Origin: Podarcis cretensis
Lineage: Eukaryota
Length of the DNA stretch: 64,000 nt
Assembly: GCA_951804945.1 (NCBI GenBank)
Contig: OX638152.1
Coordinates: 42,842,001-42,906,000, forward strand
Direction of reading: 5' to 3'
Shown: piece by piece, positions 3,480 through 59,279 of the stretch
How the letters are laid out: the number at the start of each line of letters is the position of its first letter
How positions within the stretch are numbered: the stretch's first letter is position 1
Position numbers and translations under genes: made by a program
Notes under the pieces: model-generated
What the model was told of the DNA's origin: nothing
The model's database searches: none
The model's input: only the letters and a program-made list of their open reading frames with translations

Positions 3480-3689
3480 GCGGTACCATGTGGGAGAGGG
3501 GGAGGAGGAGAAGGCGGAGGGGGGAGGCTGGCTGGCTGGCGGACAATGGAGCCTGTGTGTGTTTGCGGGAAAGGAGCGAGTTCGCCGTCGCCGGGGGGAG
3601 ACGCTGCGCCGCCGCCGCCGCCTCCTGCCCGGGGCTGAGAGGTGCCCCCCGGCCAGGCCAGGCCCCTCCGCCCTTGGTGGGCAAGAGCG
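3480..3689 (+). other. BCL9: Candidate BCL9 alternative non-coding exon 1b (start approximate)
   Basis: Downstream of CCAAT/GC boxes. Donor GCG|GTGAGC (GT at 3690). Confidence 0.35.
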
Positions 3690-20154: not shown

Positions 20155-20231
20155 GTGATCTTTTTGTCTACAAAGGGCTTCTGAACCCATTTTCAGGATG
20201 ATCAGTACAATGTCGTGACACTGGAGTTCTG
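20155..20231 (+). other. BCL9: Candidate BCL9 5'UTR exon (77 nt)
   Basis: Acceptor TTTGTCTTATTTCAG| and donor CTG|GTAAGC. Lies ~2.2 kb upstream of the first coding exon. Confidence 0.6.
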
Positions 20232-22408
20232 GTAAGCTGCCTTTAGAAGCAAAGGGAACAGGCCAAAAGGCTTGCAGAAATACAGGGTTCCCTACATTAT
20301 ATTGAAGAATGAGCTACTGAAATTGGTTTTAATAATGGTCTGCTTGGCTGTAACATTTGACAGCATAATATTGTTGGCCTCCGTCTGTCTCTAGAGACAA
20401 TGGAGTGTGCCTCCAGGGATGAAGTCAAATGGCTGCGTATAATAAGTATATTACAAAAAGAACGAATGGACCATTGATGTCCTGATTGCAGTGAACTCTG
20501 CACTTTGGGTTGAAAGTAACTTTTGTGGATTGTTTCTTCTGAGACAGTGGCATTAACAGAAACGAGGCTGGCAAAGCTTGCTTTTCTAGAAGACATGTGC
20601 CCTGTCCAACATGTCCCAAAAGATGACTTGCATTTTAGCTTCATTAACCTAGAAAATAATAATAAAATTTTTCCTTTTGGGATTGATAAGTGAAATTAGT
20701 GCCCATTATATTGGGATGATTTGTGGTAGACAGGAGTGTTTGAATTCATCTCCTGCTTCATATTCTGTGTAGTCTGCTATGGTCTTTTGTCCTCACTGAA
20801 AGCATGCCTACCATCTTGTGTTTGAGTGTTTTACGGGTGAAGGGGTAGAAATACAGCCTGGCTTACAGCAGATTCAGATGTGGCACATCCAAAATGTTTA
20901 AATAAGCATGCCTGTCCACTTCTACTAATGCTTCTAGAAGTCTCGTTTCTCAAAACCACCAAGTCTAATTTGTGGGCATTAGCATATGCTCTCAGGCAGA
21001 ATGAGTCCTGTGCTTGTGAGAACAAGATCTCACAATAACTCTGTATTTGGCTTATGTAAAATACAGTTCTTTAATGCAGATTGGATTGTATTTCTTGTAG
21101 GTTCTTAAGCATCAACATTAGTAATAGCTGTCCTGTGACCTTATCTGAAATTTAATTGGCACAGTCCTCTCCTTGCAATGACCAAAAATAATAAATCTTT
21201 TTAAAATCTCTGTTGCCTTACATACTTCGAGTATGGGGATCCTTTGCCAAATTTGTAGGACTTCCTTCCTTCAGACCTGGAAGCATTTGAGGAAGGAATG
21301 GTAGAAGGAGGAAAAGAACTTAAATGTCCTGATGCTATCTTCTGATATTAAGATATGTTGATGCTGTGTCATAGAATGACAAAATTTAGTATTACGACAT
21401 TGTCATATGAAAAAGCTTGCAGTATGTTTAAGCAGCACAAAAGGGGTTTTTTGCTTTCAAAATAAACTGCTGTGTTTCAAAGAAATCTGACCAGTAAATA
21501 CTACTTTCTTATACTTTTACTTTCTTCATAGCTTATAAATTTATGAATTATGAAAAAATACTTAATTTGAATATTATCATCTAGTGTTAGAGGTTGGTAA
21601 TCTAGTTTTCATTCAGATACAAAAATTGTTCTGATATAAAAACTGTGATAATAAATTGAATCTTATAGAAAATTGTTCCAAAACTCTTCAGCATGAAGAA
21701 GAAAAACATTTTAGATTCCTTTACTAATAGTAGTGATGAATAAGCCCTGTGTTAAAATCTGCTCAAACACCATAATGTTCAATGTTTCTAACTTTTCATT
21801 TAAATGTAGATTGAGACATAGTATTTATAGACAGTAGTCTAGAAAATTGGGCCTAGCAACTTTGACATAGGATACTTAGCACTTCAATGCAGTAATTTTG
21901 ATGGTGGATATTGATTATTCAGAAGTCATGAAATGATCCCTCCTCCCATTACCATCTTGTGTTTCACTAGGGTAATTGTTACCTGTTTTTAAGATGTGCT
22001 AATAATTGTGTGATCTTCTAAAAATGTTGCTATATCTTTTTGCAGTGATGTGGCCTGCATAGTACTTTTAGAAAGCTTGAACTGATTGATACGAGCAACT
22101 TGCTTCTCTACACATAAATGTGTTTGTACATGATCTTGGATTGGAGTACAGAGAAACTTCCTCCCTCTCATCTGTTAGATCTAGCACACCTGGTTGTTGC
22201 TTACGTAGCTAATGCCGGAAAAGCGTTTATTTTATAATCGGAATGTACATTCAGCTTCCATCTGGTTGAGCTTTCTCATCTTGCCCTTCCAGTTAAAAAG
22301 GTGGAGAAAAAAAAGGCCATATACTGATCTCATTTAGTTCTAGATTCCTCCCCTTTTTAATAGTCTTTTTTTGTTCTTTGACTGGGTTTGGTTCAGTTTG
22401 CCCTGGAG

Positions 22409-22591
22409 ATGCGAGACTTCCTCACAACAGCAGGAGTCACACATTTGGAGAATGCTGGAGCTGCGAGAGGGAAAGGCCCAGTGCAACAACAGAGAGAAGC
22501 AAAAAGGAAAAAGACAAGCAGACCGACAGCACTGAGGAAAGCAAGGGACAGAAAGTGCTTCAGAACTGCCAGCAGCAACAGAGGAACTTGA
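22409..22591 (+). CDS. Upstream ORF (60 aa, basic) in the BCL9 first coding exon: MRDFLTTAGVTHLENAGAARGKGPVQQQREAKRKKTSRPTALRKARDRKCFRTASSNRGT
   Basis: ATG in GAGATGC context 12 nt after the acceptor (exon start 22397). TGA lies 49 nt before the BCL9 ATG. Translation is not shown by sequence alone. Confidence 0.5.
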   Translation: MRDFLTTAGVTHLENAGAARGKGPVQQQREAKRKKTSRPTALRKARDRKCFRTASSNRGT

Positions 22592-22640
22592 CAAGAAGCC
22601 CCCCTCAGTGCGTGTGGCTGTGTGCTTAGGATTTCTGTCA

Positions 22641-22693
22641 ATGCATTCCAGTAACCCCAAAGTGAGAAATTCCCCATCAGGAAATGCCCAGAG
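22641..22693 (+). CDS. BCL9: BCL9 coding exon 1 (exon starts 22397; MHSSNPKVRNSPSGNAQ)
   Basis: ATG at 22641, donor AG|GTAAAT, acceptor GGTTCAG| at 22396. Confidence 0.93.
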
Positions 22694-22700
22694 GTAAATA

Positions 22701-22738
<38 letters not shown>

Positions 22739-25700
22739 TCTCCCTCTCTGTATGTGTCTCTCTGGTGGCATTATTACATGAATCACTATTTGCCTTCTGT
22801 ACTTTAATTGGAACCCCATGTCATGTGAGTTTCATCTGCTGAGTGCTATTCAAGTTTATTCTGATACGGAGAATTCTCTTCATGTGCTGGTTCTATCTGC
22901 CTTTATATGATATTTCATAAGAAATTACATGTTTTTGCAATCTCTTTTGAGGTTCTTGATTTTGTAGTTGCTTATGTTTTCTTGTTGTTTTTTGCCCCCA
23001 TTGAGGATCTCTGGCTCAATCCTCTAATTTGACAAAACAGCCTTTGAGAGGGTGACAGTTTTGACCATTCCACTTGACAGCACACAGTGCTTCCACTTCC
23101 ATTTTATGGGGAAGGTAAATATTGGCACATAGAGGAAGTGTTCCCATGTCACTTCTGTTTTGGTGTTCAGGGGGCAAGCATATTCTTCGTATAGACGGAA
23201 CAAAAACATCCCCCCCCCCAAATAAGTAGAAGTGCAAAGAAACATCCTTAGAACACAAAATTGAATGGAAATTGTAGCTATTTTGCCTGAGGTAACCAGA
23301 TCTCTTAATTATTATTATTATTATTAGTTTATCAGAGCATTAATACCCCAAACTTCATGCCACTTAGGATAACTTACAATATAGAAAAACCAGTTTCATG
23401 AAAATGGTTGAAAATAATTGCAAAAGAGGCAGAGTTAGCAGTTTAAAAAAGCATTATCTGCCTCATATTATAAAAGCCTTCTGGGGAAAACTGGGGGGAA
23501 AAGCTGTGTAGGAAGTGACCAACCATGGGCCAAATGAATATGGTAATCTGGTTGTTGACATGGAGCAAGTCCTCTCATATCTTATCCAGCCACACTTCTA
23601 CCTTCGATGGGACACAGAGAAGGGTCTCTCCTTCTGATCTTAGGAATGGTATGAGTGGAGGGGATCCTTGAAGTATTCTGGACCTAATCCGTTTCAAAAG
23701 AATTGTGCCCAGAAGCAAATTTGTACCCAGTGTGTATTACTGGATTGTGGAAGGGGTGGGTAGGTTCCTTCTCAACTTTATTGCTGGGGTTTTTTTATTA
23801 CATTGTATCTGATAGGGACGCAGGTGGCGCTGTGGGTTAAAGCCTCAGCGCCTAGGACTTGCCGATCGAAAGGTCGGCGGTTCGAATCCCTGCGGCGGGG
23901 TGCGCTCCCGCTGCTCGGTCCCAGCGCCTGCCAACCTAGCAGTTCGAAAGCACCTCCGGGTGCAAGTAGATAAATAGGGACCGCTTACCAGCGGGAAGGT
24001 AAACGGCGTTTCCGTGTGCAGCTCTGGCTCGCCAGAGCAGCGATGTCACGCTGGCCACGTGACCCGGAAGTGTCTCCGGACAGCGCTGGCCCCTGGCCTC
24101 TTAAGTGAGATGGGCGCACAACCCCAGAGTCTGTCAAGACTGGCCCGTACGGGCAGGGGTACCTTTACCTTTACCTTTTTATCTGAGAGCTGATTCATAT
24201 CTTCTGCCACTCATGTGCATCTTACAGCTCTTTCAAGTAATCTACGACTCAAAGAAATTGAGTGATCTTACAGACCAGCTTCCATTATCAGGGAGGTCTA
24301 CCCCTGATCTGGTGTGTTCCTCTTCATGCAAGTTGGCTACATATACATTGTGGCTGCTGACTATAATTATGGATCAGTTCTGAGATTCAGCTCTTTTTTT
24401 CCAATATATTTCCCCCACATCTACTGTGCTGATGAAATCTAGTTCAGTGCTATTTTACAATATTCTTTTGCACTTGTTTTCAGAAAGATGCAATTTTTGC
24501 CTCTAACAGTTGAAAGTAACTGAAGCGAGCATTTTTAAAACTTACATTCTGCTGGCAGGTAATGGATAGAAATTCAGAGTTGTGTATAAATTCAGTTGAA
24601 TTTTCATGGAAAAACATCCCCCCCCCCGACAGTTGAGCTGTGTTCTTTGAATCCAGATGGGTGGCATTGTGAACTTTATGGTGCCCTGCTTATTTGCTTT
24701 GTGCTGGTCTTAGTGTGAGGCATGTCTTTGTACATAGAAACCATTGTCTTTATTGACAGAAGTGACAGAGGTACATCCCCATGTGACTGACTGGTTCCTA
24801 GGATCTGGGTAGTTGCTGCCTTTCTCTGTTTGCTTAAGTAGTAATACCTCAAGCTGGATAATAAGGCATTTTTTTAGATAACTGCTGGACAATATGCATG
24901 TGGATGAATTTAACTTACCGGTGCTGGCCACGCTCTGTAAAATAAGCTGAGCTGGTGGCTACTGCTGCGTAAATTGGCATTCGTATACCTTTTATTACAA
25001 ATTACTCTTCTTCCCCACCTTTCTTTTCCAGTAGTCCCAAATCAAAGCAGGAGGTGATGGTCCGTCCCCCTACAGTGATGTCCCCATCTGGCAACCCCCA
25101 GCTGGACTCTAAATTCTCCAACCAGGGTAAACAGGGGGGCTCAACTGGCCAATCCCAGCCCTCTCCCTGCGACCCCAAGAGTGGGGGCCACACACCAAAA
25201 GTGCTCCCAGGACAAGGAGGAAGCATGGGGTTGAAAAACGGGGCTGGCAATGGTTCAAAAGGGAAAGGAAAGAGAGAGAGGAGCATTTCAGCGGACTCAT
25301 TTGAACAAAGAGATGCTGGGACTCCCAGTGATGAATCTGAAATCAAAGGTATGTCTACATGTGAAGGGGCAGAAATATGAGTGGGTGCCAGCTTTTACTG
25401 AGAGCCTCTGTGATTTTTTTTTTAACTTGCTCTGAACCCTAGAAATTGTACCAGCCAAAATGAGTCAGTTTTGTATATTGGCATGAAGGAAGATTTTTGA
25501 CAATTGGATTGGAAGACTTGGAAAAAGCAGCTTCCTGCCAAAGCACATGTTCTGAAACTTGTCACAGTGACCCCCTTTTAAACTAATAGTTCCTCAAGTG
25601 TAAAAAGAGGCAAACAATTTGTCTTTTCAAGAGTGTTTTGTTTGATATGCTTGATAAGAAGGCAGGTCCCACGAACCCCACAGCATACTGTGGTCAGTTT

Positions 25701-56798: not shown

Positions 56799-59279
56799 GA
56801 CTTCCGGGTTGGTGCCTCCGGTAATGGCGGAATTCCTCTGATCAGGAGGAATTTGCCTCGTGGGAATTTGGGTCTGGCCGCCATGGTGAAGGCGGAGACC
56901 CGCTAAAAATCACAGGCGGGAGAAGCCTGTGAGCATGGGATTCGGCGGGCACCCTTTGCGCCTCCCCTACTCGTGGGGAAACCCGGTTTTGGGGGTCCGG
57001 AGCAACGTGGGGTGAGCGGCGCGGTGCTTCGAATCGTCTGCTTCTTCCATGGAGCGAAGCCACATAGCTGTTGCCGGAAGGCGCTGACTTTTTCTTGTGG
57101 ACAATTTGACTTCAAAGTAATTACCCGTGAGTAGAGCTGAAGCGGGAGAATTGGATTTTTAAGCATCTAATTTGGTATCGTAATGGGGAGGTTCAACATA
57201 GGAAGTCCGCCTTCCCCTTTTGTAAATAGACTGAAGCAATGAGGCTGCAAGCTGAGGTCTTGGAAAGCCCTTTGTAAAATATTAAATTTCCATCGGTAAA
57301 GAACACTAAACCCCCCCTTGGAGGCAGGAGAAGAGGGGGGGGGGAGTTGTGGACTGAGTACGCCTGTAGGAGAGAGCAAAGAGAGCTAAAATACCGCCGC
57401 TCTGACCCTGGAAACGGGCTGCTAGCAGAACTGATGTCTTTTGGAATGTTCATTGACAGTGTTTAGAACGTTCATTGACAGCTAGCTAAATAAGAGAAAT
57501 ACATTGTTTCTACTGTTTCCGGCTGCTTTTAAAAAGGAGTAAAAAGTAACTGAAAACTGAAACTGTGTTTAAAAGAGGACATTACTGACTAATAGAAATA
57601 GAAACTGTACCCCCCCTAGTGGAAGTTTTTGAAACTGGTTGCTTTACAAGAGCTGGGCTAGGGGAATTTCCAGCTGCAAGATAAAAAAACTGTGAGACTC
57701 TGGGACTGACCTTGAATCTTTTGAGTGTTATGGCAAATGGAAAAGAAAAAACAGACCAGTCAACTGCTGAAAACACATTAAGGTCTGGGAGGACTTGGCA
57801 GCAACCCAGGAGAGGCTCAACATCAGGCCTCCCTGCTACTTCTGCTGCTGCTTTTGCACCAGTACACTCAAAACCAAGAGGAATGTCGACAGAAGAGGCC
57901 TTAGCGGTTGCATTAAATAAGATAAATGATTCACTGGAACAGCTTAACAAGAAAACAGACGTGATAAATGTGAAAGTGGATGCTGCAACTACTAAAATTG
58001 ACTTAATTACAGAAAGTATAAATATTCTGGGACAAAAGGTGAATACCAATACAGAAACCATCCAGAAATTGACACAGGAATCTACTTTGATACGGCAGAC
58101 TGCGGAAGAAGCCAGGGAGAAAGCTGTTGCTGCTGAATGTAAAGTAACACAACTTGAGAGAGTCCCAGCCCTACAGAGGCAACTTGATGAACATAAGTTG
58201 ACGCTTGTTATGATTGAACTTAAAGGAAAACAGACGAATTTGAGGATCAGAGCCCTACCTGAATTGGAGAAGAAAAGCTTGATAGATTTTCTCACACAGG
58301 AATTTGCTGACTTTTGGGACTTGGACTTGGGCCAAGAAGAGTTTAGAATTGTGAGGGCCTTCAGACTTGGAAGAGGAGGGAAAAAAGAGAAGAATAGAAT
58401 AAGAGACTGCTTGATCACTCTTCGAACTAAAGAAGAGAGAGATAGAATCTTGGGTTGGCATTACCAGAAGAACCTAGAAGTACAACAGTCAAGAGTGGAA
58501 ATTTTTAAACATGTCTCGAAATATCTTTTGGATTTTAGGCCTAACTACGGAGATATTGTTGCCCTGCTGAGAAGGAATAAAATCATCTTTAGGTGGGAGT
58601 TTTCCCCAAGGTTTATCCTTCAGTTTCAAAGGAAGGAATATAAAAATAAGATCAGTAGAAGATAAAGTAAAGTTTTTGAATGAATACGAAGAAGATCTGC
58701 AGAAGGGACTTGGAAAAGAGCCAAGAGCATCGGATAGAAGATCACCAGGATGAAGTTGATGGACTATATGGAACTGGCAGAAATGACCGGCAGAATCCGA
58801 GACCAGGGAGAAGAGTCGGTGGAAGAAGACTGGAAAAAGTTTAAAGATTTTTTATGGAAATACTGTAAAATTAATGAATGTTAGAAAAATGTTGGAATGA
58901 AGTTATATGGCTTTAGTAGAAATGTTATAAGGAATTAAGTATAAATAGATTAATAGAGTATCAAAGGAAAAAATAAGGTTAGAATGTGTTAAGATAATTA
59001 TAGGATAGAAAACAGAGGAAGATGGAAAGGAATTGCTGAAACAATTAATAGAGGTGGAATACAAAAAGGGAGGTGTGAGGAGGTCGTTGAAACAAGTGAA
59101 TGAAAGATAAGATACTGAAATTGGTTGATGTGTTTTAAATTGTTTTTGTTTTGTTTTGTTAGTTTAATGTGTTAGTGTTATGTAGTGTTTTTGTATTGTA
59201 TTGTATTGTTCTTCTTCTTTGTAGTGTTTAAATTGTTGGAAAAGTAATAAATATTATTTTTTAAAAAAAAAAGAAAAAG
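56799..59279 (+). mobile_element. L1-clade retroelement, 2.48 kb, with both ends present but lacking almost all of ORF2 (HAL1-like)
   Basis: 13-bp TSD AAAAGGCTGTCGG (56786-56798, 59280-59292), CpG-rich 5'UTR, ORF1, 44-codon ORF2 C-terminal remnant, AT-rich 3'UTR, AATAAA and an A-rich tail. Confidence 0.85.
57730..58753 (+). pseudogene. L1 ORF1p-like protein (coiled coil + RRM + CTD) with one +1 frameshift at ~58600-58603
   Basis: Heptad-rich helical region, then NLRIRALPE, RAFRLG, RDCLITL, VEIFKHVS and FRWEF(PQGLSFSFKG), which are L1 ORF1 (Transposase_22-like) motifs. The shifted frame continues to TGA at 58751-58753. Confidence 0.85.

Follow-up and report, generated by a model that had tools for sequence, protein, structure and literature searches.

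The predicted leader of the BCL9 mRNA of Podarcis cretensis carries two overlapping upstream reading frames that probably act together as a translational brake on BCL9, the outer one (uORF1) also likely yielding a basic, disordered peptide with a moderately selected core. uORF1 is, by its sequence, the squamate ortholog of human LOC128071544. It is not a discovery, being a known RefSeq gene in human and in many amniotes; the sole addition made here is the nested architecture that it forms with a second frame, uORF2. The features discussed lie in a window of 64,000 nucleotides, the whole stretch of DNA that was analysed:

20155..20231, + strand: predicted 5'UTR exon upstream of the first coding exon, placed by a match to a rattlesnake model; its 5' bound is a prediction
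22397..22693, + strand: first coding exon of BCL9, with predicted bounds that coincide with gene-model matches
22409..22591, + strand: uORF1, the outer frame of 60 codons, orthologous to human LOC128071544
22452..22535, + strand: uORF2, the inner frame (27 codons, A at -3), read in phase with BCL9; ATG 22452, stop 22533-22535
22502..22513, + strand: KRKK basic core of the uORF1 peptide (codons 32-35), a monopartite NLS-like pattern
22630..22640, + strand: segment behind a possible alternative acceptor (AG ending at 22629, junction implied by rattlesnake model P0007) that would skip uORF1 and uORF2
22641..22693, + strand: BCL9 start ATG at 22641 in the weak context TCA ATG C, with the first 17 codons

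The BCL9 leader and the family of uORF1

Translation of uORF1 gives 60 amino acids followed by a stop that closes 49 nt before the BCL9 ATG, as the earlier note had described; the start contexts that it gave, GAG ATG C for uORF1 and TCA ATG C for BCL9, are also those of the sequence. The two ATGs share a predicted exon and gene models, and that of BCL9 sits in the +1 frame relative to uORF1. A pyrimidine tract leads up to the AG at 22396 in front of the exon, and a GT donor follows at 22694; cobra and rattlesnake gene models align to the window from exactly 22397. Spliced to 25032 it encodes the BCL9 N-terminus MHSSNPKV...SSPKSKQEV, a stretch identical to the rattlesnake model at 46/46 residues and to the sheep model at 45/46, and the remaining BCL9 coding sequence extends to about 37600. 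A search of the P. cretensis genome returned a single match for the exon DNA, and a paralog search there with the uORF1 peptide returned only itself at E <0.4. The second coding exon opens on a tandem acceptor (CAG TAG, 25030-25035), whose alternative use would add or drop a single serine in BCL9. Elsewhere in the window, positions 57685-58662 hold a 326-codon open frame that presumably resembles LINE-1 ORF1.

The predicted upstream exon has an 8/8 match, ending at its GT donor, to the rattlesnake gene model (E 0.16 alone). Its in-frame stop, 15 codons above the uORF1 ATG, rules out an N-terminal extension of uORF1. The sheep and rattlesnake gene models join the uORF peptide to BCL9. Extended or BCL9-fused forms of this kind, which also include a cobra model, most likely arose when gene predictors made the joins, and a weak search among 8000 candidates found no longer or fused form. 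The same exon carries two mini-uORFs, mutually in frame, at ATG 20198 (6 codons) and ATG 20210 (2 codons), which after the predicted splicing stop (20198-20218) 25 nt before the uORF1 ATG. Far upstream, the presumed first exon of BCL9, which is rich in CpG, has a strong-context ATG (ACA ATG G, 3546-3569) that reads MEPVCVCG; the sheep gene model P0023 begins MEPMCACG, identical at 6/8 residues. Position 3546 is possibly an additional conserved upstream start.

The length of uORF1 by itself is only mildly unusual: dinucleotide shuffling of 22397-22640 produces a closed ATG frame of at least 60 codons in 108 of 5000 cases, and none of 64 intronic tiles holds one. We take the frame as real because it is conserved. 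Its human counterpart is RefSeq LOC128071544 (NP_001401821.1, UniProt A0A6Q8PHS2, 68 aa), whose annotation gives no function. The peptide is identical to NP_001401821.1 at 36/60 residues and to its Anolis carolinensis relative at 54/58; the nearest matches are the Anolis RefSeq entries named 'uncharacterized LOC128071544 homolog', with relatives in Pogona and snakes. The UniRef name '40S ribosomal protein S30' attached to the Pogona homolog has no Pfam support and was set aside. Profile searches gave seven matches among 1.84 billion representatives and 42 among 924 candidates, the latter with E values from 1e-31 to 1e-12. Named homologs come from squamates, turtles, alligator, birds, a marsupial (bilby) and placentals, including mouse and rat proteins, so that the peptide is conserved between distant taxa within the amniotes only. 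No amphibian or fish protein is among the named profile matches, which is weak evidence as the databases contain annotated ORFs only. The exact P. cretensis sequence is absent from the searched protein collection. With both homology to the human protein and the same position in the BCL9 leader, uORF1 is assigned on its sequence to the LOC128071544 family. The idea of a conserved amniote uORF put forward in the earlier note is thereby upheld. The human ORF that it placed at this position exists, already annotated as LOC128071544, and NP_001401821.1 contains all three features that it named (MRDF, ENAGAARGK and KRKK).

Family-wide comparisons used 78 of 103 fetched proteins, 65 of them unique over residues 1-45, a set biased by the fact that databases annotate intact ORFs. 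Two degenerate JGI copies, seven extended or fused models (one of them a bird form with a late frameshift), four 'low quality' models and 12 more ground-squirrel copies were left out. The homologous stop is used in 62/78 homologs, at lengths of 58-68 aa (58 recognised by script, 4 reclassified by eye). The other 16 end elsewhere: five after late frameshifts (birds), six over the BCL9 ATG, four in extensions (bats) and one at an early stop; the early stop of the bilby leaves a 36-aa form. Records whose frame has lost the stop and continues across the BCL9 ATG belong to Myotis, hedgehog, pocket gopher and three further entries (P0056, P0059, P0044, P0017, P0018, P0076), and are natural overlapping-uORF variants useful for comparison. 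In ground squirrels (Callospermophilus, Urocitellus) the peptide is present many times over, in near-identical copies that sit on different contigs, with one contig carrying two (P0039, P0090-P0103); either the BCL9 5' region has been amplified locally or the assemblies contain duplicates. JGI proteins P0012 and P0024 are degenerate spliced copies that carry a deletion and stop early; they probably derive from a processed pseudogene in host DNA. A metagenome scan for orthologous DNA gave 417 pattern matches, of which none was confirmed.

A second frame nested in the first

uORF2 lies within uORF1 in the frame of BCL9; its stop is 105 nt upstream of the BCL9 ATG and the frame is open between them. 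Its ATG spans N15-A16 of the uORF1 peptide and its stop spans L42-R43, and the conserved peptide motifs ENAG and ALR overlie this start and this stop, respectively. Part of the apparent conservation of the peptide thus coincides with signals of another frame, which the earlier note had overlooked.

In a codon-ambiguous, post hoc test, designed after the alignment had been viewed, the uORF2 ATG is possible in 65/65 unique sequences (five N>D and one A>V events) against 3/200 neutral simulations; its stop, a weak test by itself, is possible in 64/64 (L>V twice, L>I, R>K twice) against 43/200, and both are retained together in 1/200 neutral simulations. All 11 substitutions at the four peptide codons over this start and stop leave the uORF2 ATG and stop possible, and none of the exchanges that would break uORF2 (N>S, A>T, L>P, R>G) is found at these sites in the homolog set.

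The GENCODE catalogue of human Ribo-seq ORFs lists c1norep199, a 45-codon frame filed under BCL9, as 'conserved', with a PhyloCSF of -459 in mammals (PMC10032668). Compared with this entry, uORF2 is in the same frame and has its Met and stop at identical positions; the human frame is longer by 18 codons at its 5' end, its ATG corresponding to a TTG in P. cretensis. Compared by hand, this human overlapping frame filed under BCL9 fits the human LOC128071544 peptide at 42/42 codons. The catalogue treats c1norep199 as a separate ORF, and the rows examined describe no nesting with LOC128071544. Its PhyloCSF fits a regulatory role of the uORF2 frame. Inside uORF2 the codon-position-1 excess is 0.57 (bootstrap 0.43-0.70; neutral 0.42), which pointed to a conserved protein encoded in this frame. 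As the main reading this was rejected, human keeping 11/27 residues there versus 18/27 in frame 0 (hand count), together with the PhyloCSF of -459.

Two further sources bear on the human leader. According to one preprint, Ribo-seq reveals a smORF in the 5'UTR of human BCL9; its PhyloCSF is negative, it has mammalian BLASTp and tBLASTn similarity, and the text leaves its frame unstated (10.1101/523860). Another explains that the GENCODE Ribo-seq list omits ORFs with an existing coding annotation, 25 such being given in its Table S6 (10.1101/2021.06.10.447896); LOC128071544 may for this reason be missing from the list, where BCL9 has two rows.

Selection on the uORF1 peptide

On balance, a basic and disordered peptide seems to be under moderate constraint at particular sites, in addition to constraint on the nucleotides. 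Between the window and human, codons 2-42 differ by about 17 synonymous and 17 nonsynonymous changes counted by hand (15 and 19 along the least favourable paths). For this one pair the hand-counted dN/dS is 0.22-0.33, or 0.32-0.46 along the least favourable paths (kappa 1-4), with one-sided Fisher p from <0.001 to 0.032. Conserved-peptide uORFs are expected to have a Ka/Ks clearly below 1, with 0.5 as a cut-off. The third-position excess by itself (16/34, p 0.067) is not significant. Across the homologs, sites vary in rate more than under neutrality (variance/mean 3.2 vs 1.0), and R29, R33, E14, G17 and R2 are without change on the tree. The peptide-level selection that the earlier note proposed to check by dN/dS thus has moderate support from this hand count, against a neutral-like spectrum of exchanges: 193 reconstructed exchanges at residues 2-45 have a mean BLOSUM62 score of -0.42, versus -0.44±0.13 for neutral evolution and +0.2 to +0.7 for coding models. 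The C-terminal third is also labile, 16/78 homologs lacking the homologous stop. In a snake-sheep control the body of BCL9 is identical at 186/245 residues, with a score of +0.14, versus 25/45 and -0.55 for uORF1.

The monopartite NLS-like pattern of the basic core, K[KR]x[KR], occurs in 74/78 homologs, a conservation seen at the level of sequence. The bipartite NLS pattern, defined as two basic residues, a linker of 10-12 and three basic residues among five, is found in the window and in 26/78 homologs, mostly sauropsids. The bipartite-NLS-like stretch that the earlier note had pointed out is thus real in P. cretensis, but it is not a family-wide character and is absent in most mammals.

These data can be read as the mark of a stable nuclear or nucleolar microprotein acting in trans, which would be the main point of a bicistronic mRNA with only minor effects on BCL9 translation. 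We consider this unlikely. It agrees with the human protein's having a curated NP_ accession and an entry in UniProt, with a dN/dS below 0.5, with the monopartite pattern and the five invariant residues, and with length changes that preserve the frame. However, structure prediction gives no confident fold for the peptide (pLDDT 59, pTM 0.19), and searches found neither a Pfam family nor an Atlas match at 0.9 or above. The neutral-like exchanges, the labile C-terminus with its 36-aa bilby form and the patchy bipartite pattern also speak against it. A functional study of LOC128071544 or A0A6Q8PHS2 was not found in the searchable literature, which likewise returned no paper on the protein and, among the titles listed, only one that bears on the ORF (10.1101/523860); relevant Ribo-seq, peptide or screen results may exist in subscription papers and supplements outside that literature.

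The opposite reading, which we rate as rather improbable, makes the peptide a by-product: selection would preserve both starts and both stops, keep the frame open and maintain purine-rich exon signals, while conservation of the amino acids would result from constraint on the nucleotides. The neutral exchange spectrum and the placement of ENAG and ALR over the uORF2 start and stop agree with it, as do codons 14-18, where 15/15 bases are identical to human including wobble positions (hand count), and codons 26-37, which are 83% purine. The non-coding spacer, read in frame, is likewise identical at 7, 3 and 6 of 14 residues to three mammalian run-through forms. Against it, frame 0 keeps 30/45 residues with human and the overlapping frame 20/45 (partly a hand count), so that changes favour the wobble sites of frame 0, as also indicated by the Fisher p of 0.03 or lower. 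The RNA has no unusual fold (z -0.61) and no Rfam match.

That P. cretensis mostly splices the uORF out, at the 22630 acceptor or at a different AG further down, or leaves it untranslated is very improbable, for the AG at 22629 and its junction in one rattlesnake model stand against an acceptor at 22396 with a pyrimidine tract, whose equivalent serves the gene models of cobra, rattlesnake, sheep and vole, and against RefSeq models of three lizards that contain the complete uORF1.

A putative brake on BCL9 translation

We favour a brake formed by uORF1 and uORF2, together with a moderately selected peptide. In the scanning model, an upstream ATG in adequate context ahead of a weak main ATG captures many ribosomes; reinitiation is poor after a long uORF with a short gap, and better after a short uORF with a longer gap. 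The frames, start contexts, orthology and conservation pattern are those described above; repression, reinitiation, localisation and any role of the peptide are inferred. Scanning ribosomes would first reach the uORF1 ATG at 22409 (G at -3), and those leaking past it would reach 22452 (A at -3). Both frames terminate ahead of the weak BCL9 ATG. Translation of uORF1, with its 60 codons and 49-nt gap, would be followed by poor reinitiation and remove ribosomes, while uORF2 (27 codons, 105 nt) would catch the leakers and, through better reinitiation, send some of them on to BCL9. BCL9 output would then be set by the split between the two upstream ATGs and by leaky scanning. The uORF2 stop would in addition block a BCL9 longer by 63 residues from the 22452 start. 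Upstream of both, the mini-uORFs could let some ribosomes bypass uORF1. BCL9 leader ORFs are translated in human cells, according to the Ribo-seq reports at hand (10.1101/523860; PMC10032668).

A more elaborate proposal, which we hold as tentative, is an amniote-wide two-frame switch that would set BCL9 dosage. Use of the first upstream ATG would give a nuclear KRKK microprotein and turn BCL9 off; use of the nested ATG would lead to reinitiation or, on readthrough, to the BCL9 form with 63 more residues, the mini-uORFs biasing the choice.

The brake can be set beside known leaders. Its closest relatives are the LOC128071544 orthologs themselves, the same ORF at the same place above BCL9, with 68 aa in human versus 60 aa in P. 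cretensis; the second basic cluster of the P. cretensis peptide is absent in most mammalian members. Conserved-peptide uORFs, such as those reportedly collected in the ESUCA set, AMD1 MAGDIS and the CHOP uORF, likewise pair a short, conserved peptide with a regulatory main ORF further downstream. In stalling peptides the C-terminus is usually the conserved part, whereas in uORF1, known here from sequence alone, it is the least conserved. The ATF4-type leader works by delayed reinitiation and its inhibitory uORF overlaps the main start. The predicted mini-uORFs ahead of a longer, presumably inhibitory uORF recall this arrangement, but uORF1 closes 49 nt before the BCL9 start, overlap being confined to 6/78 homologs. 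ASDURF and MIEF1-MP are bicistronic uORF microproteins. So are HRURF and the ATXN1 uORF (10.1101/2021.06.10.447896), and STREMI, from SLC35A4, acts both as a protein and as a cis regulator (PMC13303939); the main text of neither source mentions BCL9. Like these five, uORF1 belongs to an annotated microprotein gene in a 5'UTR; it differs from them in having no predicted fold or domain and in its weaker selection. Overall, uORF1 would work like a conserved uORF.

With uORF1 a known gene gains one more ortholog, from a reptile; the number of genes stays the same. Its overlap with uORF2 is a warning that motifs taken for protein conservation in a uORF can be the start and stop codons of another frame. 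uORF2 offers a concrete and cheap handle, of four start/stop edits, on the dosing of the beta-catenin co-activator BCL9. If the two-frame switch were true, variants in these few codons would alter Wnt output.
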